NCBI RefSeq assembly: GCF_056712565.1
Contig: NZ_CM160072.1
DNA: 64,000 bases
Strand: one strand, 5' to 3'
Part shown: positions 28,120 to 52,893 of the stretch, in pieces
Layout: each line of letters starts with the position of its first letter
How positions within the stretch are numbered: position 1 is the first letter of the stretch
The notes under the pieces: model-generated
What the model was told of the DNA's origin: nothing
The model's input: the letters and a program-made list of their open reading frames with translations, nothing else
Databases searched by the model: none
Made by a program: the position numbers and the translations under genes

Positions 28120-28602
28120 CTATCTGGTCAAAGTGTCGTACTGTTTTTCGCAGACTCTTCCGGCTTCGGCTGCCCGGTCAGCATACTCTGCCAGTTGTCT
28201 GTTTCTCTCGAGAGATTTGCTGAGCACGTCGGCAAGCAAAACTCCGGTGTCTGCGGCTGACGACCCAGCGCCGACAATGGCGTTATACTGCCTGAGCTGC
28301 TCACGGATGGCAAAGAGTTGTTGCTGCAACCGGCCAGCGCTAGCGGCAGCATCAAGAGCATCATTGCGCGCCTGGTCGATCCTCTGCTGAGCTTCACGTT
28401 CATTGGTCACTTTCTCCTGTTCGTAGTACTGACGAACTTTGTCTTCTTCGGCTTTGCGGTCTTCTTCCGCCTGAGCATACCCGGCATCGTACTGGCGACT
28501 GCCGTGTATATTCCAGGCAACCACTCCTGATATGACCAGAACAGCAAGCACTGCCACGATAAGCAACTGTTTCCAGTATGCTTTCACGAATGCCTTGATC
28601 AT
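28120..28602 (-). CDS. Rz-like i-spanin
   Basis: N-terminal TM anchor then charged coiled-coil; last gene of lysis cassette. Confidence 0.6.
   Translation of the reverse strand: MIKAFVKAYWKQLLIVAVLAVLVISGVVAWNIHGSRQYDAGYAQAEEDRKAEEDKVRQYYEQEKVTNEREAQQRIDQARNDALDAAASAGRLQQQLFAIREQLRQYNAIVGAGSSAADTGVLLADVLSKSLERNRQLAEYADRAAEAGRVCEKQYDTLTR
28128..28364 (-). CDS. Rz1-like o-spanin lipoprotein, embedded in Rz in the +1 frame
   Basis: MMLLMLPLALAGCS lipobox; fully nested within Rz. Confidence 0.5.
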   Translation of the reverse strand: MMLLMLPLALAGCSNNSLPSVSSSGSITPLSALGRQPQTPEFCLPTCSANLSRETDNWQSMLTGQPKPEESAKNSTTL

Positions 28603-28823
28603 ATACTTACCTTCGGCTGAAATCGGCGAACGTTAATTGGCTCACCATATGGCCATGACCAATTCAGCCAGGTAAATGTTTTCAGCTCGCACATCGCATC
28701 GAAAAATTCACCAGGATCGATGTCGGAATAGCTGCAAACTATTTCCAGACCACGTTCTGTTTCTTGCAAAGCAACTGTATCTGTTTCCCAGCGGGGAATG
28801 AGCAAAGAAAATAGTTTATTCAT
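28599..28823 (-). CDS. Hypothetical 74-aa protein, translationally coupled to endolysin
   Basis: ATG 28823 overlaps endolysin stop; RBS AGAAGG; no TM. Confidence 0.4.
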
Positions 28824-29446
28824 AAAAGCACCTTCTTGGCCGAAAGATACCGTACACGCCGGTCGTCGATACCGTTTCTGCCACCATTGATAATCAGAGT
28901 TACACGTGCAATATCGCCGGTATACTTCATGCATCCTTTGCTGGCGAAGAACCACGCCGCGCTACGAGCCGCATATTCGTCCTGCGCCAGCAGTTCAGGG
29001 CTCTCCAGCAGGTCAACCTTCAGACCGTTTCCGCAATCACGATAGTTATTCAAACCGGTAATCTGGATAAGTCCGCGCCCTCGGTAATTCCAGCCATCAC
29101 CAGGGGCATTGTTCCCCATGCGTTTGCTGTATACCAGATTTGCGATCGCGCGCTGGCGCTCAAGTGGCAATGGTGGTTCACCAGCACGGCGCCCCAGTGC
29201 ATTAGCCTGCCCCTGAGTGAGACGCCCAGCCCGAACGAAGTTAGCCAGTCCGCTGACACTGTAGTTGAAATTCTCCTGCAACCTGGTGAAGCCCCCAGAC
29301 TCATGCCCGACTTGAGCAATAAACATTGCCTGATCTTCTGCTTTGCTGATACCAAACTCTTTCATCGCAGAAGTTATATGCGAGAACCAGCGTGCGGCCA
29401 GTGCCTCGCTGATACCAGCAGCTCGCTGGAATTGTTTAATCTCCAT
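28820..29446 (-). CDS. Endolysin, glycoside hydrolase family 19-like
   Basis: [12 protein letters not shown]...[12 protein letters not shown] chitinase-class motifs; start ATG 29446 with RBS GAGGT; track extension to 29611 rejected. Confidence 0.75.
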
Positions 29447-29744
29447 GTTTAGACCTCGATACTTTAAAAATTTGAACGACGTTACCGCGCGTTTTAATAA
29501 CCGCAGCCAGCATGACAGCGTTGATAATGACCTCAGATAAATCCACAGCCATTGGCGTACGTAACCAGATTGCATAGGCGACTCGAACAGGAATACTGGC
29601 CGCAGCAACAATCAGGAAATAAGCAAGCCATCCTCCCCACCTTCGATGTTGAGAGCCGTTACGCCGGAATGTGACAACGCGAATTGCTATGCCAGTGCAA
29701 ATAACTGCATTGGTGATAAGCAAAAAAAACTCATGCGTTACCAT
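29436..29744 (-). CDS. Lysis-cassette membrane protein (holin or antiholin candidate)
   Basis: 102 aa, about 3 TM segments, overlaps endolysin start. Confidence 0.5.
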
Positions 29745-30135
29745 CGTCTTTTCTCCCCGGAATTAACTCGCGTGGATTATCGGAACGGTGATAGAGCCAT
29801 ATACCAATACGCACAGCGACAATTGCTGACACGAATGCGCCTGCAGAGAAAACAATCCCTTTTTCAAAAGAGTCCTGCGTGATGGTAGGGATCAGGCTGG
29901 CTATGCCGATAAGAATTGATGCTGCTGGTTTGTAAAAGAGAAGGCCACAAAGAAAGCTGAGCATCGAAAGGAGCACCCGGCGACGGATGGGGTACTCTAC
30001 TGCAGAGGTAACAAAAATTACCGCCCCAGCCAAAGCCCCTAAAGCAACCTCCGGAGGGACACCTGCAATAACCGCAGCAAGAGAACTAAAACTAAGCAAC
30101 TGATTTAATTGCTCACTTGTTACTTGAGCAGACAT
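29731..30135 (-). CDS. Holin-like membrane protein
   Basis: 134 aa, about 4 TM segments, charged C-terminus, first gene of lysis cassette. Confidence 0.5.
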   Translation of the reverse strand: MSAQVTSEQLNQLLSFSSLAAVIAGVPPEVALGALAGAVIFVTSAVEYPIRRRVLLSMLSFLCGLLFYKPAASILIGIASLIPTITQDSFEKGIVFSAGAFVSAIVAVRIGIWLYHRSDNPRELIPGRKDDGNA

Positions 30136-30416: not shown

Positions 30417-30445
30417 CCCGCAAAATATTGCGGGCTTTTTTTTAA
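30417..30445 (+). terminator. Plus-strand rho-independent terminator abutting tailspike stop
   Basis: CCCGCAAAATATTGCGGG followed by CTTTTTTTTT. Confidence 0.4.
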
Positions 30446-33400
30446 CGTTCTTCCAGAGACTGAATCCGCTCTTTTATCTTATCCATTTCTCTGCGCTGCC
30501 ATGCTGCCTCGATATAGAATAAGAGATCAGGTCTGACCCCCCATCTAGATCCTGCTGGCGTTATTTCAACGCGCTCAATGATGTCTTCTATTACCATCAC
30601 TGGATTATCATCCTCATCAACAATGATGCTCCCGTCATTATCAGTCAGCGGCATTTCCCTTTGGCCAGTAATGACGTCATCATATACTGCGGGATAATCG
30701 TCATAGCAAAGAAAGGCATAGCGGCATGTTGTGCTTTCTTCTTCCATGAGTCCGTGAGAAATAAGAACATCACGAAGTTGCTGCGCGATTACACCATGAT
30801 GTATCCTCGCCCCTTCTTCCCCCTTTATAGCGACAGCGTTCAGCCATTTATAAGCGATATACCTGACGTCACCCCAGGCATCCAGCAATGCTTCGTCAGG
30901 AGAGACCGGCTCTGTCTTTAATGTTCCGTCACTGGTAACCACAGGATTGGAGCCAAGATAAACTGTCGAGAACCTGTTTCCCGGACCACCAAGAGCATTT
31001 ACATTATCAAGATAAGGTTTAACATCTCCGTTCTCAAAAAGATGTTCGAGTGCGTTATATACCGCGCGACGTGGAGTACTGCTTCCGGAACCATGCAACG
31101 TTATCATTGCACCATCTGCTGAAGACGTTGTTTCACCTCCGCTAACGATTAATCTCTGAGCGGTAACATCATCAGACGGTACTTTCTTCGCAATAATGGC
31201 GTAATTACCCTCAAGTTTGACTTCCGCGCGAACTTGTCCTGATGTACCTGCATGGACAGTCAGTGACTGGACGGCAACATCATCTGTGAAATCAACGGGT
31301 ACAGGAACCGTCCTCACGCCTGACGTCGACATAAAAGTAGGAAGCGTTCTGTTAGGAGTGGCTCCGTAGACAAAATCCCTTGAAACAAATTCTTCCTGTT
31401 TAATTTTCACCCTGAAACAATACAAATCAGCCGGGTGACCATCGTGAACATAAGGATATTTTCTGTTGTTATCCCCTATGCTCCATGGGTTTAGAAAGTC
31501 TTCCCCACCGAAAATGTAGTACAGCCAGTTGTCTTTGATACAAACTGAACCAACACCAACCGCAGAGTTAACTATTCCGCCCTGATAAATCTGATCAGTA
31601 ACATTAACCCACTCTACATTATCCAGACTCCACTCATTGACGTTAACTCTGGTCATAAATGTTCTTGGATAATTTCCTGCATAACGGTTATCAGGTTCTC
31701 CTCCTTCCCACTCACCAAATGCGCGCTCACTGCCAAAAATAATCAGCTCATCGCCAACTTTGGCAAAAGGAAGGTTTGAGTGATGAACATTATTTGGGAA
31801 GCGAAGAGAATTCCATGATGTACCTAAATCAGAGCTTCTGTGCAATGAACTACCGGGTTGAGTACTTAATGTCCCCCTGGTCGTCAGATACAGAATGCCA
31901 TCATAATATTTTACACATGGCTCAGATGCATTCGCCTCATATTCTGCAGGTATGCGTCTGCGAACAAAGCTACCAGGAGAACCGAAAGCATCAGAGAAAT
32001 AGAGTATCCCAAGCTCGCGTGGACCAATATCACCATTATGGTAGCCAACAGCAAAACTGTTATCGCTAATCGTCGCAAAACTGTGAATCTCAGTAACAGG
32101 AGTGCTTCCGTCAACAAAAGAAGGAATAGTTCCAAGACTGGTTTTTCTCCATGGTGACGAGTGAAATGATGTACCAAAACTCCAGTATCTACCCTCGTTA
32201 TTCTGATCCACATCCTGAGTATTTTGCGTCGTAACTGTAAAAGTATTTTTATCAATAACAGTAGTCACCGTCATATTCCCGGTAACACCTGTAACACCAG
32301 AGTTTGAGAAGTTGACAAAATCACCAGCAAATAATCCGTGATCAGTAATGCGAATATAAGCGACTTGCTGATTTGCTGCTTTCGTTATACCACCATAAAC
32401 GCGAAGGCTGCGACTCATTGGGCGATCCCACAACTCTGCAACCTGCAGTTTATTTCCTCTCACGGTCCGCGTCTCAATTACAGCAAAAAGGCGATTTCTG
32501 ACAACCCCCATACTCATGCAGTGATAGTTAACTGTGGGATAGTTTTCATGTAAATCTGTAAGCCATTCCGGCGTTGTCCAGGTCTTCCCGTCATCTCCTG
32601 AGCGAACCCATGCAACATGGAGGTTATTTACACCATGGCGGTCTCCAGCCATAAAAGGCGCATAGATGACATTGTCATATACAAACGTTTTATCCTGCGT
32701 CCAGGCGTTGTACCACGGTGTATCTGTAATTTTAAATAACTCTCCCTGGATAAAATCTTCAGAAGCATAAAAAAGAGGCTGGCCCGGTATTCTCTCAAAT
32801 AAAAAACGAGCATTTTTAAATCGACTGACATCCGGAAGAGTTGATACTTTAAAAGTAAGCCCTAATCCGTCAATTTTATAACCTGGAGATGAGGCTTCAA
32901 GGCACGCGCTTATTGCAGTGGAATCGTCATTTATACCATCACCAACAGCTCCAAAATCTTTGGGGCTAATAGCATCACGCATTTTATCCTGGAACGTTCG
33001 GTACACAGCCCCAGAACCATACTGAATAAACCAACCAAAACCACCAACAACCCCGGCGATTGCAGCATCGACATAATTACGCATTGAGCGATTATTTACA
33101 GCGTCCTGCTCAAATGATGGATCTGCAAGGTTAGAAATTTTGTTTTGCTTTGCATCGTAATATTTTGCAAGCAAAGATGGTTTCATCAATGCACGTCTGA
33201 ACCACCCAAAACATTGCTGGATCAGCATCGTCAGGTAGTCAAAGGCATCTTCATGCACTTCGGGGAAAAATTTTCCCTGATTGCGAAGGTCTGTCTCCTG
33301 CACTACATCAAGCACACGATCTATCGTAATTCGCCATCCAGTAGCAAGCGGAGACGGAAGAACCACAGAACCGCCACTATAAGTGCCCGCCCCAGTTACC

Positions 33401-33561
33401 GTATAACCGGTATCCAGGACCAATTCTGTTACGTTCCCGTTCAGGTCAGACACCTGAACAACCAGGTCTGATTTTCTGAAAATTCGAAAAGTATACGGAA
33501 ACGATGTCGTAACGCCGTTACCGGTGTATTCGTTGTGGTCAACTTCGGTTGAGACCGTCAT
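30442..33561 (-). CDS. Tailspike protein with Asp-box (BNR) beta-propeller-type central domain
   Basis: 1039 aa; conserved phage tail-fibre N-terminal domain; two SxDxGxTW motifs (SGDDGKTW, SSDLGTSW); RBS GGAG. Confidence 0.8.
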   Translation of the reverse strand: MTVSTEVDHNEYTGNGVTTSFPYTFRIFRKSDLVVQVSDLNGNVTELVLDTGYTVTGAGTYSGGSVVLPSPLATGWRITIDRVLDVVQETDLRNQGKFFPEVHEDAFDYLTMLIQQCFGWFRRALMKPSLLAKYYDAKQNKISNLADPSFEQDAVNNRSMRNYVDAAIAGVVGGFGWFIQYGSGAVYRTFQDKMRDAISPKDFGAVGDGINDDSTAISACLEASSPGYKIDGLGLTFKVSTLPDVSRFKNARFLFERIPGQPLFYASEDFIQGELFKITDTPWYNAWTQDKTFVYDNVIYAPFMAGDRHGVNNLHVAWVRSGDDGKTWTTPEWLTDLHENYPTVNYHCMSMGVVRNRLFAVIETRTVRGNKLQVAELWDRPMSRSLRVYGGITKAANQQVAYIRITDHGLFAGDFVNFSNSGVTGVTGNMTVTTVIDKNTFTVTTQNTQDVDQNNEGRYWSFGTSFHSSPWRKTSLGTIPSFVDGSTPVTEIHSFATISDNSFAVGYHNGDIGPRELGILYFSDAFGSPGSFVRRRIPAEYEANASEPCVKYYDGILYLTTRGTLSTQPGSSLHRSSDLGTSWNSLRFPNNVHHSNLPFAKVGDELIIFGSERAFGEWEGGEPDNRYAGNYPRTFMTRVNVNEWSLDNVEWVNVTDQIYQGGIVNSAVGVGSVCIKDNWLYYIFGGEDFLNPWSIGDNNRKYPYVHDGHPADLYCFRVKIKQEEFVSRDFVYGATPNRTLPTFMSTSGVRTVPVPVDFTDDVAVQSLTVHAGTSGQVRAEVKLEGNYAIIAKKVPSDDVTAQRLIVSGGETTSSADGAMITLHGSGSSTPRRAVYNALEHLFENGDVKPYLDNVNALGGPGNRFSTVYLGSNPVVTSDGTLKTEPVSPDEALLDAWGDVRYIAYKWLNAVAIKGEEGARIHHGVIAQQLRDVLISHGLMEEESTTCRYAFLCYDDYPAVYDDVITGQREMPLTDNDGSIIVDEDDNPVMVIEDIIERVEITPAGSRWGVRPDLLFYIEAAWQRREMDKIKERIQSLEER

Positions 33562-36052: not shown

Positions 36053-36058
36053 AAACAA

Positions 36059-36074
36059 GGCCGCGAAAGCGGCC
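36059..36074 (-). terminator. Terminator ending the minus-strand virion operon
   Basis: GGCCGCGAAAGCGGCC hairpin followed on minus strand by TTGTTTTTAA. Confidence 0.5.
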
Positions 36075-36075
36075 T

Positions 36076-36088: not shown

Positions 36089-36649
36089 CTACATTGATAT
36101 ATGATTCATAAAGTAGCTTAAAGATTTACTTCCCAGAAAAGAAATTTCTTTTCCTGGATATGTCGCAATAATTGAGCATGACTTATCCCCGTTAGAGGTA
36201 ACAAATCCTGAATAACCTACTTGTTCTTTACCATTTTGTTGCTTGGCTAAAAAGTAGAGGTAGCTTATCTTTTTGCCCTCTGGGTAAAACTCTGCCAAAC
36301 CAGTATCGGTGATTGAATATTTTATTCTCCCGCCTTGAGTAACGTTTTCCATCTCAAGTTTAGCTATGTCTTTTCTGTTGTATTCAGCATTGATTTTCCT
36401 TTCGAAATCAATGTTGTTTTCAAATGAGTAGGAAGCAACAGTCTGAATAGATGGGAACACGTTTATCTGGATGCCCCCACAGTCGGCACAGGTATAAAGG
36501 TATGAATCAGATGGAATCCCCATAAAAGAAAACTGAGTTACCTTAAATTTATCGCTATCTCCAAAGTATTGAAGTTCGCATTTAACATTTTGCCCTGCAA
36601 AAGAAAATGCAGACATCAATATTGAAACAAAAAATATAATTGCCTTCAT
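36089..36649 (-). CDS. Secreted Cys-containing protein (186 aa), AT-rich moron at end of virion operon
   Basis: Signal peptide MKAIIFFVSILMSAFSFA; ATG 2 nt after stop of upstream gene. Confidence 0.55.
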   Translation of the reverse strand: MKAIIFFVSILMSAFSFAGQNVKCELQYFGDSDKFKVTQFSFMGIPSDSYLYTCADCGGIQINVFPSIQTVASYSFENNIDFERKINAEYNRKDIAKLEMENVTQGGRIKYSITDTGLAEFYPEGKKISYLYFLAKQQNGKEQVGYSGFVTSNGDKSCSIIATYPGKEISFLGSKSLSYFMNHISM

Positions 36650-36651
36650 TA

Positions 36652-39204
36652 TTATTTACCTAGCATGAACTGCGATGGTGGGATCAGAAAGTCGTTCCCC
36701 TGCTCACGCTCAACACGGCGCTGATAACGCTCAAGAGAGCCTGGGTCAAGGGCATCTTGTATCCGGTTCAATATTAAACCATTCATCGCCGTACGAAGCC
36801 AGAACACGTTGAGGAATGGCGTATTGTCAAGTGCCGTGCGATACCAGTCACCCAAATCTGCATCCCCTCTCGTGGTCTGCTGGAGCAGCGTGATAATGCT
36901 GTCAGCGTTCGATGCTGCTGGCCCCATTAGCGACGTAACCGGCCCGGCCCCCATGCGGTTGACCTCACCAAACATGAAGTCACCCAAGATGCCAAGACCG
37001 CCCCCCTGAGATGCGGCTGCGAGAAACGTCTTGGCATCTGCCGGGCGTGGTGTTTGCCCTTTCAGCATGAGTTTTGACTGCATGGAGATATAACCAAACA
37101 TAGTCGCCCAGACAAAGAGGTTTGCAGCACCAAGGAAAGCCCCCTTCCCGTTACGTAGCAGCGCATTCGTCAGCGATCCGGTTTTCGACTCACCAAGCCC
37201 AGCAGGAATATAACCACGCCCGAATACTTCGCGTCCTAGTACGTTCTGCATGAAGCTTGCAGTGAACGATTTGTACTGACCAGCGAATCGTATTGCTTCC
37301 CCAGCCACCGTTCCTGGCACCGTGCCCATCTTCATAAACGCCTGCGTGCGATCGCCAGGCTCTGACATGGCGATATTCAGACGGTCAAGGATGTAGCCGC
37401 GCAACTGCCCTTCCAATTGATCGCGTGCGTCAGCGATAGCGCGCTGCGTTGGTTTGATCCCCTTACTCTCTACATAACCGGCAATCACTTCGTCAGGCAC
37501 GCCGCGGATGCCGCTGGTCGTCATGAACTTACGACCTTCGCTATCGGCCATGTCCATGTTGCGAAAAATTTCCCACTCACGTTCGCCAATACCGTGCAGA
37601 TCCAGCACGCGTCGCAGGTCTTCCGGTAGCCGCGCATGAGACTGGTCAGCATTCTTTGCAAGCCAGTTGGTTATCATCATGGCGTTGCTGTTGCGACCGC
37701 TCTCGGTCCAGAAGTTCATGAGGTTGTACTTAAAGAAAAGCTGCTGCGCGCGACCAAGCTTTCCATTCAGCGTGTCATCACCAGATATGCGCCGGATGAT
37801 TTCCTGCGTCATGGAGTCGGAATAAACTCCGATAGAGGAAAGGATCTCTTTCTGCTCCGCGCTGTTGTAACGCGTGAAGCGGCCTCTCATAGCACCAAGC
37901 AACGCCTGCATAAAATTCTGCCCTTGGTAGCGCATCTCGGTAGCGGCGATAGGCACGTCGTTAAACGATGAGATTACCGCGCCACCAAGTTGGCTCATAC
38001 GCAACCAGCCGCGTACAGCCGCCGACGCATTGGCCCAGCCTACGCTGCCAGGAATATTTAGCGAGCCGTCAACCTGCGGCATTACGGTACGGTTAATGCG
38101 ACGCACCTTCGTCATGTAGTCAGCCAACGCTGCCGGTCTTCCGGATTTGCTGATATCTTCAGCAATGGCGTCCGTCAGGTACTTAAACATGTTCTGTGGG
38201 TTAGTGCCCAGTACGCGCATCATGCCCGTTGTGCGGGCAGCGCTGTTTAAGCCACCAAACAGCGCTTCTCGCAGGCTGCCGGTGCCGAATTGCTGGTTGT
38301 ACTCGTGCCACGAGATACCATCTTTGAAGTGCAAAATTCGCTCTTGGCTGGCGCGTTTAGCTGCGTTCGCCGATCCCTTAAAGCCATTCATCCAATCGGG
38401 CTTTTCAGATGTAAGATGCACGCCGGAAGCCAGCCCGTTATAAATGTTACGCATGAACTGCTCGCGGTCAGCCACGCCGTCAAAAGTGCGCTCATCAAGG
38501 CGCGGGAGAATAGCATTTCGCCATGCTTCATAACCTGCGGCGCGGATCTTCATGATGTCGTGTGACTGGCGCACTATATAGCCCGGCTCTTTGCGTATCC
38601 ATGCCCCGGCGCGGTTCTCATCAATGCGCGCAGTTTCCTGCCATTTCATGATGATTTGTGCAGCGCTTACGGATTGCTTTGTCATACCGTCAGTTGACTG
38701 CCCGCGCCCTATGCGCCACATTGCATCGGCAATTTCCCGGTCATTGCTGCCGCTGGCGATGAATTGCACCAGCCCGGCACGGTCAAAATCGTAGTTGATA
38801 CCGGAATGATACTTGCCGCGCAGTTGCGCCACCTCCGAAGATACCGACCGGCGGGCGCCGGTACGCGCATCGTTGCGGCCAACCAGCATTGCTTCAAGCC
38901 CGATATCCGGGCGGTCTTTCCAGATAGTACGAAGCTCTCTAAGTCGTTGTGCGGCAATACGGGCGTCGATTGCCTTATTGCGAGCCTCAATCTGTTTTGC
39001 CAGCATATCGGCATTGCTCAGTTCTTCCGCTGCGCGCATCGCGGCCTCTTCCAGAGACAGCGCCTCATTGGTCGCCAGAATTCGCCTAGTGGTGTCGTTC
39101 ATGTCACGCACCAGCGACTCCATCTCATCGGAAGAAAGCTCGCGACCAGCGGCAGCATTTACACTGCGCTCGCACTGCGTCAAAAATTCGTTTGCTGCCA
39201 TCAC
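36652..39204 (-). CDS. Large internal virion / DNA-ejection protein (850 aa)
   Basis: Position between tail-tube-like genes and tailspike; overlapping starts/stops with neighbours. Confidence 0.55.
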   Translation of the reverse strand: MMAANEFLTQCERSVNAAAGRELSSDEMESLVRDMNDTTRRILATNEALSLEEAAMRAAEELSNADMLAKQIEARNKAIDARIAAQRLRELRTIWKDRPDIGLEAMLVGRNDARTGARRSVSSEVAQLRGKYHSGINYDFDRAGLVQFIASGSNDREIADAMWRIGRGQSTDGMTKQSVSAAQIIMKWQETARIDENRAGAWIRKEPGYIVRQSHDIMKIRAAGYEAWRNAILPRLDERTFDGVADREQFMRNIYNGLASGVHLTSEKPDWMNGFKGSANAAKRASQERILHFKDGISWHEYNQQFGTGSLREALFGGLNSAARTTGMMRVLGTNPQNMFKYLTDAIAEDISKSGRPAALADYMTKVRRINRTVMPQVDGSLNIPGSVGWANASAAVRGWLRMSQLGGAVISSFNDVPIAATEMRYQGQNFMQALLGAMRGRFTRYNSAEQKEILSSIGVYSDSMTQEIIRRISGDDTLNGKLGRAQQLFFKYNLMNFWTESGRNSNAMMITNWLAKNADQSHARLPEDLRRVLDLHGIGEREWEIFRNMDMADSEGRKFMTTSGIRGVPDEVIAGYVESKGIKPTQRAIADARDQLEGQLRGYILDRLNIAMSEPGDRTQAFMKMGTVPGTVAGEAIRFAGQYKSFTASFMQNVLGREVFGRGYIPAGLGESKTGSLTNALLRNGKGAFLGAANLFVWATMFGYISMQSKLMLKGQTPRPADAKTFLAAASQGGGLGILGDFMFGEVNRMGAGPVTSLMGPAASNADSIITLLQQTTRGDADLGDWYRTALDNTPFLNVFWLRTAMNGLILNRIQDALDPGSLERYQRRVEREQGNDFLIPPSQFMLGK

Positions 39205-40898
39205 ATCCCCCGGTTAATCATACAGGCGGCAAATGCCCGGAAAGCGTTGCTCATGCTATTGTCGCTGGCGTCGGCACGAATATCATTGAGTTTCTGGCGC
39301 AACGTGGTCGCAAGATCAGGGTTATCGACAGCGATATCGTCAAGCAGGGCGTTACTCAGGTTGAGCTCGTTATCAAGGTCTGCAGCGGCAGCGGTAATTT
39401 CATGATCTGCCTTTTGCGTTTCTTGATAAACCCGATCGGCTGTTTCGCTTGCTGGGCGAGCCGTTTCATCAACCTGCCGTGCCGGGTTCTGTATGCGATG
39501 GATGGCGCGTTCACGCAGTGCTGGTTTGTGCAGTTCATAGAAGGGCTCAACATCTGGGCTACGTCCTTCCATCATGTGTGCCAGCGCAGCGCGATACGCC
39601 TGCTGGTTCACGTTCCAGTCAGCATCCCTGATGGCGCTTGCGGCAGTGCGAACTGCGCCAGCGACCGGCGACATCTGCATGCCGTCCAGGATCTGCTGCG
39701 CACGCTCGGAAATGGTGACTTTCAGGTCGTCGGGGATCTCGCCGCGGGAAATCTGAGACTGGCGCCAGCGCGCCTGCTCTGCTGTCGCGTTCTGCTCCAG
39801 CGATGTGTTGATCTCCTGATTGCGTGCAGCGATGGCGTCTTTCTCGGCCTGAATCTCTTTCAGTGCCCTAGAGCGCGCATCCTTAAACTTCATCCGCTGC
39901 CCCTGATACTTTTTGGTGCGCTGCTGCAGCGTCGCATCAAGCGAGTCAGCATGACGTTGATTAGCCGCAAGCTCGGCACGCAGGTCGGCAACGTTACCGA
40001 TCTGCCCGCTCTGTAACTCCTGCTGGCGCGCCATATAGTCAGGAACCACGTCGTCATAAGCCCGGCTGTATGCGTAGCTCTCCGCTTCACTGGAAATGGC
40101 CGCCGCCAGATCTGCGTTAGCGCCAACCTCAGGGATATTCACGCCCGCCGGAATGTTGTCAGGCGTTATCACCGGGGTTGGCTGCGCATCGCCAGAAAAC
40201 GCCGGGGACTCTCCCGTTGCAGCATCGGGAACGCGACGCGGTCGCACGATATCGGCGATAAGGCCGCCGCCGGCATGCATTAGACCGCCAGCCATCGTGT
40301 TAAAGAAAGTACTTTCCAACGCGTTGCTATAGGTGAAGTCGTCACCTTCCGCCGCCGCTGCCAGCCCGGTAAGCGGCACGGTCACCAACGCCTGCGCTGC
40401 CCCCATGCGTGCACCAGCAACAAATCGCTCGCCAAATCGGCCAAGCACAGAAGCCGCCTTTGCTTCTCCAGCGAACGGAACCAGCGCCAGCGCCACGTTA
40501 CCAGGATCTGCCATTGAACCAGCTAGGCTGGCTGCGAAATTAAGCGGCGTGGCTACCCACCCGCTCGGTGCCGACATCGCGATCTGCTGGCGTGCCAGAG
40601 AATCTTTGCGTTCGGCAATAACATGATCGAGAAAAGCCTGCGTAACGCCAGAATCTGGCACGTTTATGCTCTTTACGCCGTACTGCTTCAGGAGCTCATC
40701 CGCTTCCTGCTTACTGATAACTGTAGAGTTTGGGTCATTCGCCAGCGAGTCGGCCTGCGCAAAGCGGTAGCCGGACATGACCGGCCCCTCTTCAAATCCC
40801 TGCTTAAGGGAAGAAAGCAGCGATTCGCCAAGCCCTGCTGGCGCGTTGCCAATTGGCTGGTTAATTCCCTGTCCCGGATCATCTGTGTAAATTGGCAT
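39201..40898 (-). CDS. Internal virion / ejection protein (565 aa)
   Basis: Ala/Gly-rich with coiled-coil C-terminus; coupled to flanking genes. Confidence 0.55.
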   Translation of the reverse strand: MPIYTDDPGQGINQPIGNAPAGLGESLLSSLKQGFEEGPVMSGYRFAQADSLANDPNSTVISKQEADELLKQYGVKSINVPDSGVTQAFLDHVIAERKDSLARQQIAMSAPSGWVATPLNFAASLAGSMADPGNVALALVPFAGEAKAASVLGRFGERFVAGARMGAAQALVTVPLTGLAAAAEGDDFTYSNALESTFFNTMAGGLMHAGGGLIADIVRPRRVPDAATGESPAFSGDAQPTPVITPDNIPAGVNIPEVGANADLAAAISSEAESYAYSRAYDDVVPDYMARQQELQSGQIGNVADLRAELAANQRHADSLDATLQQRTKKYQGQRMKFKDARSRALKEIQAEKDAIAARNQEINTSLEQNATAEQARWRQSQISRGEIPDDLKVTISERAQQILDGMQMSPVAGAVRTAASAIRDADWNVNQQAYRAALAHMMEGRSPDVEPFYELHKPALRERAIHRIQNPARQVDETARPASETADRVYQETQKADHEITAAAADLDNELNLSNALLDDIAVDNPDLATTLRQKLNDIRADASDNSMSNAFRAFAACMINRGM

Positions 40899-40899
40899 G

Positions 40900-43521
40900 T
40901 TATCGTCCTGATTGCTGGCCGTTCTGGAAAATGTTAATCAGGTTGTCGCGCTGACTTTCTGCGCTGTATTCCTTAGACTGTCCGGGAGTATATTTCACCG
41001 GAGTATCAATGAACTTGGTAATGCTGTTCCATACTGATCGGTTGGTTGTTCCCAGTTTCGCCAGATCGTTGAACGGCACCGTAATCGGGTTGCCGTCGGC
41101 ACCGTTGACGATCAGCCCGTTGAGCATCAGGGTAAGTCCTGTTTCGTCGCTGTTGGTAACCCACTGCGCATTATCACGAATGCGGGAGATACTCTGCTCA
41201 CGGTTGACCTCATCAGGTAGCCTTGGGTCACCAATAAGCGGCATAATCTGATCTGCTGACAGGTTTTTCAGATACGCATTGGCACCATCGTTAACGTCAC
41301 GAATATCTATCCCTGCACGCTTAGGTAGCCGCCAAGTGCCATTGGTCTGGTACTGCTCGCCGAGGATGTCCTGATACGCCTGTTTTGCTGCATCAGACGC
41401 CGACATTCCGCGCTGCATGTTGATGTAAGTAAGTCGTTTTCCCTGCTCGTTGAAGTTATTCCACACGGCAGTGCCACCAGGCTGAACAACCATCGTGCAA
41501 GCAAAATCTTTCGATTGGTCATTCCATGACGAGTCGGCGCTATCCGCGTCGGTTTTCTCAAGACTGCCGCGTAAGTCAGCAGTTTTAACGCTACGGTTTT
41601 GCCAGAGCGCATTTGCCGCGCGCGGGTTCTCGGTAGCCATGACAACCTGCAACGCAGGATAAGCGCTCTTCTGAACCTGCTGCATCACCTGATCCGAGTA
41701 TTTGCCGAACGACTGCGCCACCGACTGAATGGCCTTTACGCTAGATTCCTGCGTGTTGTCAATACGCTGCAGTACGTCGTGGACCATGGACTCCGGTAAA
41801 ACTTTTTTGCTCATTATCCCCAGGCGGTCTTTTTCAGACTGTATGCGGGAAACTAGGTATTCACCAGATGAAGGGTCATTCAGGTACTGCTGGAATGCAG
41901 CCTGCACAACCGGAGAGTTTTGTTGCAGCCATGCCCCCGGATCCGCTTCCCGCGCCTTCAGTACCTGCCCAAGCTTGACCTTTGCCGATGCATAAAGCTC
42001 TGCTTTGTATTTAAAGTCAGGGTCGTTTTCCTGCGGTGCCATTGCCTGCACGGCGGCGGTACCCTGCTGGACGTTGCCCTGCATAATGGTCTGATAAACA
42101 GGTTGTAGCGTCATTGCCTGCTGGTATTGCTGGAAGGTTTTTTCCATCTGCAGGCGCTCGGCAGGCGCTGCCTGAAGCGGCATAACGGCGGCCCATTCGT
42201 GCGCTGAAATAGGCGTCACCTGCTTACCGGCCTCAATTTTGGATAGGTCGTCCTGCATTCGACTCTGTAGCGCAACGCGACCGGCTGAAGCCTGCATGTC
42301 GTACATGCCAGCAACCTTGCTCATCATCTGCGACTTTTTGTCCGGACTCATGGCGTTCCAGAATGGCTGTGCGATGAGGTTTTCCATCGTCGCAGATCCA
42401 GGAATAGCTCCAGCACTGCCAGTTACTTTTGCCACATAATTGCGCGTCTCGTCGTATGGGATAGCTGCGGCAAACTGGGCGTTACTGACTTCGCCTGTGC
42501 GCGGATCGCCAATCTGTTTAATCCAGCCGTCAACCTTTCCTGGGCCAGCGTTATAGGCAGCTACTGCCAGAACCGGGTTATTGTCGTATTTCTTCATCTG
42601 CGCGCCGAAATAAGCTTGCCCCAAGCGGGCATTATAGCGCGGGTCATTCAACCATTTATCTCGGTCCCACGGCACGCCAGCAAGGCGGGCAGCTTCGGGG
42701 CCAGTATCTTCCGTCACCTGCGCTACGCCAACAGCGCCTTTTGGCGACACCAGAGGTGTTCCGTCCTTTCCGTACTGATTTCCGCCACTCTCCTGCCAGA
42801 TTATTGCAGAGAATAACTGCGCCTCACTCGGTGTATCGGTTACCTCAATCTTGCCGTTCGGACCCATCATCTGTTGATACATCGGCACATACCACGCCTC
42901 CGCCGCACCGTTCGCGGCATTCTCGCGCCACGAAACCCAGTTCTGTTCGATCTCTTCCTGACTCTGGCCGTGGGCTTCGCCGTAAGCGATGATGCTATGA
43001 TATGCCTTCAATCCTGCCTGGTTTGCCATTGTCGGGTTACGGAACTGCATCGATAGGTTTTTTAGTGTCGCATCCTGCATATCCGCCTCATACTGGCGAA
43101 CCTGTCCTATTTCGTACCTCCCGGCCTGCGTAGCGAACTGAATACGCTGCTGCTGCGCCTGCTGCATGAAAGCATTACGAGCCTGTTCATCCGGCAGCGA
43201 CATAGCCAGTTGTTCGATCTGAGCATCAAACTGCTGTGTATACTCATGGCCTTTTCCAATAGCATTTTTCCCTTTCAGGTTAAGCAATCCTGTTTCAGGA
43301 TTATTCAGCAGATCGCTGCTTATCTGACTGAGGTTAAGAGATGCCTCCTGAGCCAGAGCGATATTGGCACGCTGTTTTGCCTGCCCCAAAACATCAATTG
43401 CCTCTGTCCCTGCCCGAACAAAAGCATCACCAATACCTGGCTGAGAAAACGTCTGCAAGCCTGCTGACTGAACTCCACGACTCTCAACCTGACGTCCGGA
43501 TACTGTTGGTACGACTGGCAT
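40900..43521 (-). CDS. Internal virion protein with lytic transglycosylase (SLT) domain
   Basis: WQESGGNQ...AYNAGPG motifs; start ATG 43521 with RBS GGAGG overlapping upstream stop. Confidence 0.7.
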   Translation of the reverse strand: MPVVPTVSGRQVESRGVQSAGLQTFSQPGIGDAFVRAGTEAIDVLGQAKQRANIALAQEASLNLSQISSDLLNNPETGLLNLKGKNAIGKGHEYTQQFDAQIEQLAMSLPDEQARNAFMQQAQQQRIQFATQAGRYEIGQVRQYEADMQDATLKNLSMQFRNPTMANQAGLKAYHSIIAYGEAHGQSQEEIEQNWVSWRENAANGAAEAWYVPMYQQMMGPNGKIEVTDTPSEAQLFSAIIWQESGGNQYGKDGTPLVSPKGAVGVAQVTEDTGPEAARLAGVPWDRDKWLNDPRYNARLGQAYFGAQMKKYDNNPVLAVAAYNAGPGKVDGWIKQIGDPRTGEVSNAQFAAAIPYDETRNYVAKVTGSAGAIPGSATMENLIAQPFWNAMSPDKKSQMMSKVAGMYDMQASAGRVALQSRMQDDLSKIEAGKQVTPISAHEWAAVMPLQAAPAERLQMEKTFQQYQQAMTLQPVYQTIMQGNVQQGTAAVQAMAPQENDPDFKYKAELYASAKVKLGQVLKAREADPGAWLQQNSPVVQAAFQQYLNDPSSGEYLVSRIQSEKDRLGIMSKKVLPESMVHDVLQRIDNTQESSVKAIQSVAQSFGKYSDQVMQQVQKSAYPALQVVMATENPRAANALWQNRSVKTADLRGSLEKTDADSADSSWNDQSKDFACTMVVQPGGTAVWNNFNEQGKRLTYINMQRGMSASDAAKQAYQDILGEQYQTNGTWRLPKRAGIDIRDVNDGANAYLKNLSADQIMPLIGDPRLPDEVNREQSISRIRDNAQWVTNSDETGLTLMLNGLIVNGADGNPITVPFNDLAKLGTTNRSVWNSITKFIDTPVKYTPGQSKEYSAESQRDNLINIFQNGQQSGR

Positions 43522-44066
43522 TATAATCCTCCGGGTAATCTGGTTCCTGCTGCTGCCCCGATTGGCGCAGGAGTGCTTTGAGTAAACGGACTCCACGTCC
43601 CACCAAACATCTGGTACGCACCGTATGCCTTCAGAGGCGCAGTGAGCAATGTTGTTGCTGCTCCCACATTCCCCTGTTTACGGGCTGAACTGGCTTCTGC
43701 TTTATAGTTGGCAGCCTGAACCTGATAACCGTAAGCCTCGCGTTGCGCGTTATTCACCGTCGTCAGAGAATCAAGAGCGCCAAACTGGGCAGTGTCGCCA
43801 AATATATCCAGCGCGTTACCTGTAGATAAATCAGCGCCGGTAGCCCCCATTGTCGCCGCCTGTGTACCAAGCCGCTGTCGGGTCTCTCTGCGCCGTTGCT
43901 CAGCTTCAGCGTTACCTCTGTTTATTGCATCATTTGCCTGAGCTGTGGCTATATCTGCGTTCGCTTCTGCAACCTTCGAGGCATACTTTCCCTGTTGGTA
44001 CTGGGTGTATGCCTGAATGCCACTCATGGCGAGCATTGCGCCACCAGCAATAACCGGATCGCACAT
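43521..44066 (-). CDS. Virion structural protein (181 aa)
   Basis: In-operon ORF with coupled start. Confidence 0.5.
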   Translation of the reverse strand: MCDPVIAGGAMLAMSGIQAYTQYQQGKYASKVAEANADIATAQANDAINRGNAEAEQRRRETRQRLGTQAATMGATGADLSTGNALDIFGDTAQFGALDSLTTVNNAQREAYGYQVQAANYKAEASSARKQGNVGAATTLLTAPLKAYGAYQMFGGTWSPFTQSTPAPIGAAAGTRLPGGL

Positions 44067-44530
44067 TATTTTCTCTCCATGTGAAATCTGTGGAAATTAA
44101 GACCAAGAGCACCATAAGGCGCGGCTTCTTCAAGCCTGAATCCAAGCCAGTGCAGCCATGCTTTGGCAACATGGTTTCGCTCGTCGACATAGTTTTCCAG
44201 GCGCGGATAAACTGCCAGCATCTGCTGCAATACAGGGAGGCAGTGGCGAAGAAATGTCTTCTGATATTTTTCAATACGGCTGGTTCCTACCAGCCAGGGC
44301 GTACCATTGCCACCGATCATTGACGCCGGAGATACGCCAAACATGGTTACCAGTTCTCCGTTCGCAAATCCTGACCAGGCCATAGTCGCAGTACGCAGAC
44401 CAACACGCAGCGCATCTTCGGTAGTCATCAGTGATACCGCATACAGTTCGTCAATATCAGCCTGACGAACATCCGGCAAAATCATCTGAAGATGCTCTTC
44501 GGTTGCGGGAATAATTTGAACATCGACCAT
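44066..44530 (-). CDS. Virion structural protein (154 aa)
   Basis: In-operon ORF with coupled start. Confidence 0.5.
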   Translation of the reverse strand: MVDVQIIPATEEHLQMILPDVRQADIDELYAVSLMTTEDALRVGLRTATMAWSGFANGELVTMFGVSPASMIGGNGTPWLVGTSRIEKYQKTFLRHCLPVLQQMLAVYPRLENYVDERNHVAKAWLHWLGFRLEEAAPYGALGLNFHRFHMERK

Positions 44531-47001
44531 CAGAATCCCCCAACAGTAAGGCGAGGAATAACGGCAAGAACAGACAGCGGCAACGGATCAAGCTGACGGA
44601 TTTTTACACGTCCGTTTTTGCCCCAGTTACTGTCCAGTTTCACTTCTACTTTTCCGGTAGCATCATCAACAGGATCATCGTAGAACTCGAATTCACGCTG
44701 TGGATATTCGTACCATTTACCGCCGGGCGTAGTCGCCCAGATGCCGCGACTGGCATTCACAACCAGAGTAACGGACGGGATCACCTGTTTTTTGTCCAGC
44801 AGCGTTTCCTGTCCGTTAATGTTGATATCCAGTGTTTCGAATTCAGCAGTTATTGGCAGGCCGATGTGCACAACAGCCCCAGGTGATTCCAGCGTGACGG
44901 CACCTCCGGAAACCACTTTCTGTGGTTCCACGTTCGCATCAGAGAGGATGTTTACGGTCTGGCCTTCAAGATGAGACAAGCCGCCAAATGTCCGGCGCGC
45001 CATCTGCCAGTTCGTGGTGGCCACATTCCTGAGGGATGGCGGGACGTTCCTGTTAGCACGAACCACTACAGCGGTATTGCTGGTTACAGAAATAATGTCG
45101 CAACGTAATTCTTTTGACACCTCATCGCCAGTATCAGGATCAGTTCCGGTATAAGGGAACTGTAGTTGCGCGCCGACATCACTACTGGTGAAGTACGCAC
45201 CACCAGAAACACTGATTGTATATTCCGCGCGGTAATCCCATTCGCCAGAACCACCAGTGATGGTCATCGTTCTGTCAGACGTATTTCTTCCATCATAGCT
45301 AAGGCCAGAATCAACAAAGAAAGCATCTTCATCGCTGGTAAATAAACGGCTGGACAGTCGCTCGATGTATCTCACTGTTTGCCCGTTAACGGTTCGGTTA
45401 ATGACGAAATACACCGCATCTTCATTGCCTTCGCTGATACTGCATGTGCTTTCATATTTTCCGGTACTGGACTGTGGTGCCCATGCAAAAACCTGTTGAT
45501 CACGCAAATAGGTCATCACCAGTAATTTACCGTCATCACGAATGCAGAAGGCGCTGGAGTAAGGGACTATCGAGAAGCACCAGTCAACAATGCTGTGCTT
45601 CTGAAAAAGATGATTGGCAAGGATGGTCAGGTCGTTCCCCTGATAGCCGTCAACATCGAATGAGTAGGCCAGATCACGGACAACGCTGCCTTTCTCCTGG
45701 ACGAACAGAGCAATATTCGCCACGGCAATTGGCGGGACGTTGCTTGAGCCATTTGATCCCTGAGAGCTGAATGCAAATGATGATGGGGTTAACACTTTGT
45801 TCTGGTCGCCGGTGATGACGTACTCACCTCCGGAAGTCAGCGCCACCAGCGAACCGACATCAATCAGGTGGCGGATCTCATTAACCTGACGCCCGGCATA
45901 GGTGTAGATAATTCTGTCGTCATCCTGCGTAGGATTGCTTTTGCCAAAATCCTTATAATCCCCGGTACGGCTGGCCCAGATAGTCTGAGGAAACGCAGTC
46001 GATGCGGCGAAGTAAAGACGTTGTTGATAATAAACAACAGTGCCAGGATAACCATTAACACTGTTCCAGGCATATTTAGCCCATTTATAGCTGGCATTAT
46101 CCTCGCCAACTACCTGCGAAGGGATATAGGAAATCACCTCGGCAGTTGCAGTAGTTCCATTTGCAGCAGAGATACGGGCAATGCCAAAACCACTGTGCAG
46201 ATACTCCCACTCAATGCCGGTATCATCATCACCGGATCCGCCCCAGCCATCCCATGATGTGCCTTCTGTATGCGAAGGGCGCAAAGTGCCTGTTTTGCCT
46301 ACTGTAACGGCGCGATAGTAGTTACTGTCTGCACGGCGAATATCGCCAATTGACGTACTCTTACTGGTTTCCCATACCGGCACAGAATCCACTGCAGGCT
46401 GTTCCAGATAGAACAATTTGCCTACCTGCTCCGCGCCAAAAATAGAGGCGCTTGCCGTTAACGTAATTGTCCCGGTGCTGGCGCTGGCATAAACCGTCAC
46501 TGACTCGTCAATATTGATATCTTCAAATGGTCCGTTCTTCGTTACCACATCAACCAGTTGCCAGTTGTCATGCGCATAGCGACGCAACTCTTTCGGCGGG
46601 TATGCCGGATGAACAAGCGTAAGCACGTCGGCGCTTTGCGTGAATTTAATTCGGAACAGATCGGCTTCAGTATATGGCGTGGAAATTTCATAAATAACAT
46701 TGCTGCTGTTCAGCACCAACGCACCATCTTTGATAACGCGCATGTACTGGTGTCCGAACTCCAGAGCATAAGTCTGAACCGTCGAGAACTGGAACGGGAT
46801 CAGGCGGCATTTCCGATTTGGGTATTTGGCGGCACCGACAAAACGCGTACCAGGTCGATTCTCAACTCCGCCATACTGCCGCACGATAAAGTTATCGCAC
46901 TTGCGCAATGCCACCTGGTACTTCGCCATGTCAATACGACCGTACAACGACGGTCCAATCTCACCACCGGCAAAGCTGGGCTGGATCCAACTGATAGCCA
47001 T
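44530..47001 (-). CDS. Tail tube/nozzle-like structural protein (823 aa)
   Basis: Large beta-rich protein after head-completion genes. Confidence 0.55.
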   Translation of the reverse strand: MAISWIQPSFAGGEIGPSLYGRIDMAKYQVALRKCDNFIVRQYGGVENRPGTRFVGAAKYPNRKCRLIPFQFSTVQTYALEFGHQYMRVIKDGALVLNSSNVIYEISTPYTEADLFRIKFTQSADVLTLVHPAYPPKELRRYAHDNWQLVDVVTKNGPFEDINIDESVTVYASASTGTITLTASASIFGAEQVGKLFYLEQPAVDSVPVWETSKSTSIGDIRRADSNYYRAVTVGKTGTLRPSHTEGTSWDGWGGSGDDDTGIEWEYLHSGFGIARISAANGTTATAEVISYIPSQVVGEDNASYKWAKYAWNSVNGYPGTVVYYQQRLYFAASTAFPQTIWASRTGDYKDFGKSNPTQDDDRIIYTYAGRQVNEIRHLIDVGSLVALTSGGEYVITGDQNKVLTPSSFAFSSQGSNGSSNVPPIAVANIALFVQEKGSVVRDLAYSFDVDGYQGNDLTILANHLFQKHSIVDWCFSIVPYSSAFCIRDDGKLLVMTYLRDQQVFAWAPQSSTGKYESTCSISEGNEDAVYFVINRTVNGQTVRYIERLSSRLFTSDEDAFFVDSGLSYDGRNTSDRTMTITGGSGEWDYRAEYTISVSGGAYFTSSDVGAQLQFPYTGTDPDTGDEVSKELRCDIISVTSNTAVVVRANRNVPPSLRNVATTNWQMARRTFGGLSHLEGQTVNILSDANVEPQKVVSGGAVTLESPGAVVHIGLPITAEFETLDININGQETLLDKKQVIPSVTLVVNASRGIWATTPGGKWYEYPQREFEFYDDPVDDATGKVEVKLDSNWGKNGRVKIRQLDPLPLSVLAVIPRLTVGGF

Positions 47002-47606
47002 CAGGACAACCTCGCAATGGTAAACTCGTCAACCGGTGGCAGTGGTTCCTGTGATTCATTCTGGCTATGCGAGCCAGCACTAAGAATCACGCGATTGTAC
47101 ATATTGAGGGCAAACGTACCGAGGTCTGCATTCCCAGTCAGCGCCATGTTAATAGCTGCCGCAAGACGCCAGGCCAACGCCTCCATAAAAATGGCATCAA
47201 ACATGTTCACATCTGTAACGCGAGATACATACTTGAGCCATGCCTGCGGCTGGTCTGTGTAGATCAACTTTCCTGTTCCGTTGGTGTCTGCACCAACTTC
47301 GTACTGAACGCGCATTGCTGCTGTTGGATTGCGTACACCAGGAAGCATAATTTCAGTAATGCGCAGACAATCGGACGGGTACTGGTACGCATATTCCCAG
47401 TCAGGCGGTGGATTGCTCGTATCTGCAAGCGCCACGCGTTTGGTAGCAAAGTTCCAGTCAAAATCAGAAAGCACAGCATCACGGCAGGCCTCAAAGTGCA
47501 GCGAACATTCCCCCGCTTCCTTGCTGGCTTCCGTCAGGCTGTTAATACTGCGGCTGTTGCCAATATTGGACAGCGCACGATTGCAGATCTCTACTACAGA
47601 GGCCAT
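47001..47606 (-). CDS. Head-tail adaptor-like protein (201 aa)
   Basis: Position between capsid module and tail tube-like gene. Confidence 0.45.
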   Translation of the reverse strand: MASVVEICNRALSNIGNSRSINSLTEASKEAGECSLHFEACRDAVLSDFDWNFATKRVALADTSNPPPDWEYAYQYPSDCLRITEIMLPGVRNPTAAMRVQYEVGADTNGTGKLIYTDQPQAWLKYVSRVTDVNMFDAIFMEALAWRLAAAINMALTGNADLGTFALNMYNRVILSAGSHSQNESQEPLPPVDEFTIARLS

Positions 47607-52816: not shown

Positions 52817-52893
52817 GTGGCATTAGCTCAGTTGGACAGAGCAACCGCCTTCTAAGCGGTTGGTCGCAGGTTCGAATCCTGCATGCCACGCCA
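52817..52893 (+). tRNA. Phage-encoded tRNA-Arg, anticodon UCU
   Basis: Cloverleaf by hand: acceptor GTGGCAT/ATGCCAC, D-arm GCTC/GAGC, anticodon stem ACCGC/GCGGT, loop CTTCTAA, T-arm GCAGG-TTCGAAT-CCTGC, CCA end. Confidence 0.85.

Follow-up and report, generated by a model that had tools for sequence, protein, structure and literature searches.

The gene at positions 40900..43521 (minus strand) of the window, the 64,000-nt stretch of contig NZ_CM160072.1 that we analyzed, encodes an 873-aa protein that is probably a virion-internal ejection (core) protein, whose predicted SLT (lytic transglycosylase) domain would open peptidoglycan during DNA delivery. It is an ordinary, already recognizable kind of phage protein, and RefSeq already names it "transglycosylase SLT domain-containing protein". 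Going beyond the preliminary description, we found that SLT is one of several alternative inserts, which replace one another at a single position of a conserved helical scaffold, and that the gene is recombinant, the whole 7-kb ejection cassette having been exchanged relative to phage phiV10.

The gene and its operon in an epsilon15/phiV10-like prophage

The stop codon of the gene lies at 40900-40902 and its ATG at 43521-43519 on the minus strand. The longest open reading frame ending at 40900 begins at a GTG at 43596 and would encode 898 aa, a start that the preliminary description considered unlikely. We agree with that judgment and rejected the GTG, which would place the start 75 nt inside the upstream 181-aa gene. 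A Shine-Dalgarno sequence, GGAGG (43528..43532, minus), stands 6 nt from the ATG, and 873 aa is the length annotated by RefSeq in 99.8%-identical E. coli genomes. In addition, M1 and P5 of the 873-aa form are almost invariant among 66 homologues. In the sequence TAATG, the TAA that ends the 181-aa gene and the ATG overlap, which suggests translational coupling of the two genes.

The host element is an epsilon15/phiV10-like (Uetakevirus) prophage, a temperate podophage, in E. coli. We observed a Uetakevirus-like gene order in its late structural operon, within which neighboring start and stop codons overlap: T7 gp11-like and gp12-like genes (tail tubular A/B homologues), genes for two small internal virion proteins of 154 and 181 aa, the 873-aa gene, genes for two large proteins of 565 and 849 aa, and a terminator. 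The 154-aa gene (44066..44530, minus) belongs to PHROG 308, "internal virion protein", and is the counterpart of epsilon15 gp13. The 181-aa gene (43521..44066, minus) encodes an internal virion (core) protein of the T7_gp14 family (Pfam T7_gp14, E=2.5e-7, 31.2 bits with a cut-off of 27); Pfam and NCBIfam gave no other match among the neighbors.

Downstream, and in the same cassette, lies the 565-aa gene (39201..40898, minus; PHROG 3003). Its product matched the middle of T7-gp16-like proteins weakly (PHROG 342, E=2.7e-8), showed no similarity to phiV10 gp19 by BLASTP, and in a homologue search returned solely close relatives without names. A PDB sequence search yielded nothing informative for this protein and nothing for the neighbor of about 850 aa. 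The latter is encoded by the 849-aa gene (36652..39201, minus), whose ATG is at 39201, one codon after the GTG with which the ORF listing begins. It is a homologue of phiV10 gp20 (23% identity over the full length) and the counterpart of epsilon15 gp17, and it falls in PHROG 684, "virion structural protein". A terminator-like GC-rich hairpin followed by a T-run (36058..36075, minus), inside a 61-nt stretch again shared with phiV10, closes the operon. A scan for promoters and terminators revealed no enrichment, and the hairpin at 36075-36058 alone looks meaningful.

An SLT domain within a helical scaffold

We identified a predicted SLT/GH23, Slt70-like lytic transglycosylase domain at about aa 226-372 (42406..42846, minus). 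The domain search that had been proposed as a check returned Pfam SLT (PF01464) at aa 233-339 (42505-42825) with 63.7 bits and E=1.5e-17, exceeding the curated gathering threshold of 21.3 bits that defines membership. PDB chains of the Slt70 type matched with E-values as low as 2.4e-13 when the single sequence was the query and 2.5e-31 with the family profile (P. aeruginosa Slt). These sequence matches are far above chance, and the predicted domain has the goose-lysozyme-like alpha-helical fold.

SLT motifs had been noticed some 250-360 aa into the protein, and we located them there: ESGGNQ at aa 244-249, GVAQV at 265-269, AYNAG at 322-326 and YDETRNYV at 356-363. The catalytic motif set I-III is complete, with E244-S245, G-x-x-Q as GVAQ265-268 and AYNxG as A322-Y-N-A-G326. 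The predicted catalytic residue, Glu244, lies in the motif WQES (codon 42790..42792, minus); almost every homologue that carries SLT, even at about 21% identity, retains Glu244-Ser245, Gln268 and Tyr323-Asn324. By these features the domain is predicted to be a family-1, Slt70-like lytic transglycosylase with intact catalytic motifs, and motifs that are intact and conserved are the pattern expected under selection on catalysis. Enzymes of this family cut MurNAc-GlcNAc bonds without hydrolysis, leaving 1,6-anhydroMurNAc.

The domain sits as an insert in a long and nearly all-helical scaffold (about aa 39-225 and 373-845). The N-terminal part, aa 1-225 (42847..43521, minus), begins with residues 1-38, which are predicted to be disordered yet are highly conserved, and continues in long helices. 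The C-terminal part, aa 373-873 (40903..42405, minus), consists largely of helices, apart from a small beta element at 724-816. We found neither a signal peptide nor a hydrophobic segment in the 873-aa protein, no 19-residue window having a mean Kyte-Doolittle value above 1.5.

Exchange of the enzyme and of the surrounding cassette

On profile comparison, the 873-aa protein is homologous over its full length to phiV10 gp18, the counterpart of epsilon15 gp15. Alignment with phiV10 gp18 by hhalign gave a probability of 100% and E=6e-49, with residues 1-834 against 1-828 in 764 aligned columns, and the protein matched PHROG 1044 (E=2e-281) and PHROG 992 (E=1e-85). The genes for epsilon15 gp15 and phiV10 gp18 occupy the same position, behind gp13- and gp14-like genes, and encode 837-842 aa as compared with 873 aa here. 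The first ~140 aa of phiV10 gp18 are nearly identical to our protein, the DNA there being 98% identical, and aa 1-232 of epsilon15 gp15 match at 53%. Beyond aa ~235, BLASTP detected no significant similarity.

Both phage proteins also hold a muralytic domain in the corresponding region, about aa 240-390, but the inserted enzyme differs: SLT/GH23 here, PHA02564 (Enc34-endolysin-like) in epsilon15 and phiV10. In a PDB sequence search, aa 247-387 of epsilon15 gp15 and phiV10 gp18 matched the Enc34 endolysin 7q47 with E~1e-19; this search alone gave the PHA02564 match, and Pfam, even at E=10, detected no domain in either protein. The Enc34 endolysin (PDB 7q47) is a proposed N-acetylglucosaminidase (PMC8943055).

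Other relatives, out of some ~14,600 homologues in all, extend the series. The C-terminal scaffold is common to proteins that lack SLT or that carry a PHA02564 or GH108 domain in its place. Relative P0124, for example, is 57% identical in its C-terminal part and has PHA02564 as the insert; P0233 has GH108 at the insert position; and P0170, in which synteny is identical, has no insert, as is the case in other relatives. Scaffold matches in BFVD bear the names tail lysozyme, GH108, SLT and NlpC/P60. One scaffold with three muralytic domains or none offers a natural comparison for the contribution of the enzyme to genome entry.

The 98% nucleotide identity to phiV10 stops at 43103, at codon ~140 of the 873-aa gene. 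From there, a 7-kb ejection-protein cassette (36091..43102, minus) is without nucleotide similarity to phiV10, while its flanks are 97-98% identical. The GC content of the cassette is 0.538, compared with 0.511 upstream. Two alleles, SLT and phiV10-type, circulate in E. coli prophages, and the SLT allele is the rarer, being present in 60 of 5426 complete genomes as compared with 344 for the phiV10-type allele. E. coli 4/0 (CP023849) is one strain that carries the prophage. Among the RefSeq E. coli records listed, the phiV10-type allele is called "hypothetical protein", although it holds an Enc34-type muralytic domain; in this common allele a previously unannotated domain is now recognized.

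The evidence establishes the slot and the swap, and any adaptive value that they might have is speculation. We raise as a tentative idea, rather doubtful as it stands, that prophages which are close relatives and share a host species trade mechanistically different wall-cutting enzymes in the slot, and that the choice of enzyme, or of the whole co-swapped 7-kb cassette, might adapt infection to the state of the host peptidoglycan or evade a host defense against entering ejection proteins.

Proposed role and comparison with known ejection systems

The preliminary description took the protein for an internal, presumably ejected component, and the context fits this. The gene lies in a late structural operon after a T7_gp14-family gene, its product is a homologue of phiV10 gp18 over the whole length and has no signal peptide, the prophage has a separate holin/GH19 cassette, and epsilon15 gp15 is counted among the proteins of the packaging/injection device (PMC12391199). 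From this we infer that the protein resides in the virion, is ejected and acts on peptidoglycan. The 873-aa protein would be packed over the portal, in the core of the capsid, alongside the gp14-like protein and both of the large proteins encoded downstream, and on infection it would be expelled through the tail. In the periplasm, the SLT domain would cut MurNAc-GlcNAc bonds locally, so that a trans-envelope DNA conduit, of which the helical scaffold may form part, could pass the peptidoglycan. By analogy with T7 gp16, the lytic transglycosylase activity may be needed under particular conditions only.

The annotations of PHROG 1044 and of TL-2011b contain the word "endolysin", which implies a role in lysis, with the enzyme acting from within, late in the lytic cycle, as an endolysin or an auxiliary lysis enzyme. 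We consider such a role highly improbable. At 28120-30135, apart from the 873-aa gene, there is a complete lysis cassette that encodes two holins together with a GH19 endolysin and a DUF2514 protein; the 873-aa gene is inside the structural operon behind the gp14-like gene, with start and stop codons coupled; and about 85% of the protein is scaffold common to relatives without an enzyme domain. With a holin/GH19 endolysin cassette present elsewhere in the prophage, we judged the PHROG label to be wrong for this protein, and an annotation as a structural/ejection protein is the apt one. The same enzyme-less relatives bear on whether the SLT domain could be a catalytically dead relic, serving purely as a structural or peptidoglycan-binding module: they function without any insert, so that the scaffold does not require the enzyme. 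The intact Glu-Ser, G-x-x-Q and AYNAG motifs, kept throughout nearly all of the diverged SLT-bearing homologues, make a relic very unlikely.

A further question is whether the protein belongs to the outside of the particle, as a tail-hub or tail-tube component with SLT at the tail tip, in the manner of tail-associated lysins. A genetic study by Guichard et al. (2013) is said to have put forward gp15 together with gp17 as the central tube of the epsilon15 tail. As summarized in PMC12391199, that study assigned gp4, gp20, gp15 and gp17/16 to the epsilon15 tail packaging/injection device; any placement of gp15 within the particle is tentative. Related SLT blocks also occur in proteins annotated as tape-measure or "lytic tail fiber". 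Against an external location, the products of genes just upstream are homologous to T7 gp11 (adaptor) and gp12 (nozzle) and can explain the short tail hub (in the epsilon15 record, gp11 is annotated from an HHpred match with T7 tail tubular protein A), and a gene for a T7_gp14-family core protein immediately precedes the 873-aa gene. The best whole-chain structural matches, though weak, are ejectosome or core proteins: 7k5c_A, the T7 ejectosome periplasmic tunnel, is the best Foldseek PDB match of the whole model (E=1e-3), with 6yt5, 8vb2 and 7eyb among the other top matches. Finally, the internal core of epsilon15 visibly exits the capsid on infection and gives rise to a periplasmic tube (PMC8954989, PMC12391199). 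We therefore regard a tail component as unlikely, and an ejected core protein as the better reading.

A bacterial housekeeping Slt was rejected as well, because the gene lies within a prophage. E. coli Slt70 and P. aeruginosa Slt are housekeeping enzymes that are secreted to the periplasm and possess superhelical U and L domains, whereas the domain described here lacks a signal peptide and lies within the scaffold of a phage protein. Its sequence is nevertheless far closer to these cellular Slt70-type enzymes (2.5e-31) than to T7 gp16, whose lytic transglycosylase domain (residues 28-147) the family profile matched with E~1e-5.

Peptidoglycan hydrolases that travel in the virion as parts of podophage ejection proteins are well documented, examples being T7 gp16, K1-5/K1E gp35, phiKMV gp36 and A4 gp28. 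In T7 gp16, an SLT-superfamily domain is likewise carried by a capsid-core ejection protein, with a presumed role in local peptidoglycan cleavage at genome entry (PMC8954989). The domain of gp16 is N-terminal (aa 1-156 of 1318), whereas SLT here is internal (aa 226-372 of 873), and the searches run detected no similarity to gp16 outside that domain. We rejected an assignment as a T7 gp16-like internal virion protein D on the internal position of the enzyme, the length of 873 aa as opposed to ~1300 aa, and the lack of any hydrophobic segment comparable to the C-terminal membrane-inserting ones of that class.

The 873-aa gene occupies the gp15 position and not that of the gp16 counterpart. T7 gp15, encoded at the same place behind a gp14 homologue, is all-helical and of similar size; profile comparison with it by hhalign gave a probability of 0.4%, and size and synteny are, for the most part, what identifies a protein as gp15-like (PMC8954989). 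In K1E and K1-5, the lysozyme activity that resides on gp16 in T7 is carried by the gp15-like gp35 (PMC8954989). Cyanopodophage A4 gp28, a pre-ejectosome protein with lytic transglycosylase and M23 domains, was resolved by cryo-EM inside the capsid (PMC12002296). As described, gp28 resembles our protein in being a helical-bundle ejection protein with the lytic transglycosylase domain away from the N-terminus, and differs from it in having an M23 peptidase as well and in carrying its enzyme domains in the C-terminal half.

The prophage and its late operon

At its left end the window holds chromosomal genes of E. coli (ppk, ppx, pdeF and yfgG-I), which an epsilon15/phiV10-like (Uetakevirus-type) prophage adjoins. 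The late operon of this prophage lies on the minus strand, and its start and stop codons mostly overlap. In transcription order it encodes homologues of T7 tail tubular proteins A (47001-47606) and B (44530-47001), a 154-aa "internal virion protein" (44066-44530), a 181-aa core protein of the T7_gp14 family (43521-44066), the 873-aa SLT protein (40900-43521), a 565-aa protein (39201-40898), an 849-aa homologue of phiV10 gp20 and counterpart of epsilon15 gp17 (36652-39201) and a final 186-aa ORF (36089-36649), followed by a terminator-like hairpin (36075-36058).

The SLT ORF ends at 40900, and its longest form, 898 aa from GTG 43596, would overlap the upstream 181-aa gene by 75 nt. Four lines of evidence disfavor this extended start and point to ATG 43521, which yields the 873-aa product: a 6-nt spacer separates GGAGG (43532-43528) from the ATG, the start codon shares bases with the TAA stop of the 181-aa gene (TAATG), RefSeq records of E. 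coli genomes with 99.8% identity give the product as 873 aa, and Met1 and Pro5 hardly vary in an alignment of 66 homologues. The preliminary description was therefore correct, both in placing the gene at 40900-43521 and in doubting the longer form.

Downstream, the 565-aa protein has a weak match (E=2.7e-8) to the mid-part (positions 224-624 of 1235) of PHROG 342, a T7-gp16-like family labelled "internal virion protein with endolysin domain", which hints that T7 gp16 functions may be split among several proteins in epsilon15/phiV10-like phages. The 186-aa ORF has a predicted signal peptide, 4 Cys and a GC content of 0.357, versus ~0.54 for the cassette; it matched PHROG 11983 (unknown function) but no Pfam or NCBIfam family, and phiV10 has a 46-aa membrane protein, gp21, in its place. 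It has the appearance of a moron, whose product might be secreted or act in the manner of a superinfection-exclusion factor.

The tailspike gene (30442-33561, minus strand, 1039 aa) carries a complete endosialidase domain set, namely End_N_terminal, beta-propeller (E=6.5e-233), beta-barrel, End_tail_spike and S74 chaperone, so the predicted target of the phage is the K1 polysialic-acid capsule. An otherwise near-identical prophage in E. coli 4/0 (CP023849) has a different tail fibre of 820 aa. There, a tRNA-Arg is annotated between the terminase and portal genes; here, tRNA-Arg (anticodon TCT) lies within the prophage at 52817-52893 (plus strand).

The SLT domain and its protein family

The lytic transglycosylase motifs quoted in the preliminary description were present in the 873-aa protein (ESGGNQ at 244-249, GVAQV at 265-269 and AYNAG at 322-326), and a domain search bore out the assignment, in which aa 233-339 matched Pfam SLT (PF01464; 63.7 bits, cut-off 21.3, E=1.5e-17). 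Searches of PDB sequences returned Slt70-type enzymes, at E=2.4e-13 with the single sequence and E=2.5e-31 with the 66-homologue profile; the profile also picked up residues 28-147 of T7 gp16, its N-terminal transglycosylase, at E about 1e-5.

An AlphaFold2 model from the same alignment was confident (mean pLDDT 88.1). In it, the scaffold is helical almost throughout, and the SLT domain stands apart as a globule of its own. The model's best whole-chain Foldseek match in the PDB was the T7 ejectosome periplasmic tunnel (7k5c chain A, E=1e-3, probability 0.99), followed by weaker matches to further core proteins of T7 and PhiM1; TM-scores were just 0.15-0.20. No signal peptide or hydrophobic segment was found in the SLT protein. 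The family profile aligned over its whole length with phiV10 gp18 (1-834 with 1-828, probability 100%, E=6e-49), and over their first ~140 residues gp18 and the SLT protein hardly differ; the counterpart in the type phage is epsilon15 gp15. According to the literature, gp15 belongs to the epsilon15 packaging/injection device (PMC12391199), and an internal core exits the capsid to form a periplasm-spanning tube (PMC12391199, PMC8954989). On this basis, the SLT protein is placed firmly in the epsilon15 gp15/phiV10 gp18 family. In the T7 sense, it is "gp15-like" only in its gene position and in a weak signal from fold comparison.

Other readings of its role were also weighed. PHROG 1044 carries the label "endolysin", a misnomer for the SLT protein because lysis genes lie elsewhere in the prophage, with a GH19 endolysin encoded at 28120-30135 together with two holins and a DUF2514 protein; an endolysin role was rejected on account of this separate cassette and the structural-operon context. 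An external tail-hub or tube component is less likely, since gp11/gp12 homologues are encoded in the same prophage and the SLT gene directly follows the gp14 homologue. Nor is the domain likely to be an inactive relic, as Glu244-Ser245, Gln268 and Tyr323-Asn324 are retained in nearly all homologues with the SLT block, down to ~21% overall identity, the pattern expected from selection for catalysis.

An exchangeable enzyme within an exchanged cassette

Where the SLT protein has its enzyme, phiV10 gp18 (record L001, 12001-14514) and epsilon15 gp15 (record L004, 5142-7670) carry a different, PHA02564-type domain at aa ~247-390. A Pfam search of these two proteins did not detect it, but it matched the Enc34 endolysin catalytic domain (PDB 7q47) at E about 1e-19 and the N-terminus of "Gp29" (PDB 9vvp) at E 1e-38 to 1e-39. 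Muralytic activity has been shown for the PHA02564 family, and N-acetylglucosaminidase activity proposed (PMC8943055). In the solved structure 9vvp, chain L (Gp29, 1295 aa) has its PHA02564-type domain at residues 3-143 and looks like a gp16-sized protein with the enzyme at the T7-gp16 position. The epsilon15 record, following an HHpred match to SltB, names gp15 a lytic transglycosylase, perhaps the wrong class of enzyme; the phiV10-type allele is a "hypothetical protein" in the RefSeq E. coli genomes listed (344 matching genomes in all). Among 5426 complete E. coli genomes, 60 had the SLT allele and 344 the phiV10 allele.

Other homologues fill this mid-scaffold slot differently. P0124, 57% identical to the SLT protein in its C-terminal part, has a PHA02564 insert, and P0233 has a GH108 domain. 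About nine of the sequence-detectable homologues (670-805 aa) have both scaffold parts without an insert, and one of these, P0170, lies in exactly the same gene order as the SLT protein. That some relatives lack an insert suggests that here, by analogy with T7 gp16, the enzyme may be of use only under particular conditions. Foldseek against predicted viral structures gave 79 matches at E<=1e-3, the best spanning most of the chain; many were nameless, and those with names included tail-lysozyme, GH108, SLT, LT_GEWL and NlpC/P60 proteins.

Nucleotide identity to phiV10 was 98% from the tail genes to position 43103 (codon ~140 of the SLT gene), was then lost, and resumed only at 36090-36030, around the terminator. 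Thus ~7 kb (36091-43102) is replaced relative to phiV10, with the whole ejection-protein cassette exchanged as one block. Besides the remainder of the SLT gene, the block takes in the genes for the 565-aa and 849-aa proteins as well as the 186-aa ORF, and has a GC content of 0.538, compared with 0.511 upstream. One breakpoint falls in the middle of a predicted helix of the SLT protein and the other at the operon terminator. Sequences closely related to the replaced part are present in Cronobacter (88-89% identity) and in Klebsiella, Salmonella and Citrobacter (78-79%). Phage TL-2011b has a third version, in which the gp14 homologue is followed by just two large proteins, of 905 and 1004 aa.

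Proposed role and comparison with known phages

By analogy with T7 (PMC8954989) and cyanophage A4 gp28 (PMC12002296), the SLT protein would be packed in the capsid core and, after adsorption, expelled via the tail; in the periplasm, the SLT domain would cut glycan strands locally, allowing the DNA conduit of ejection proteins to cross the sacculus. The N-terminus is predicted to be disordered yet is highly conserved, and it has stayed identical on either side of the recombination event. A plausible, if speculative, role for it would be docking onto conserved partners, for instance the portal or the gp14-like protein.

The SLT protein is already named after its domain in RefSeq, and muralytic domains on podophage ejection proteins, moving between gp15-like and gp16-like proteins, have already been described; gp35 of K1E/K1-5 was noted explicitly, and such domain swapping was called "thematic" (PMC8954989). 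Alongside these systems, a slot for alternative enzymes and a cassette swap within one host species make a tidy, unsurprising case of phage mosaicism.
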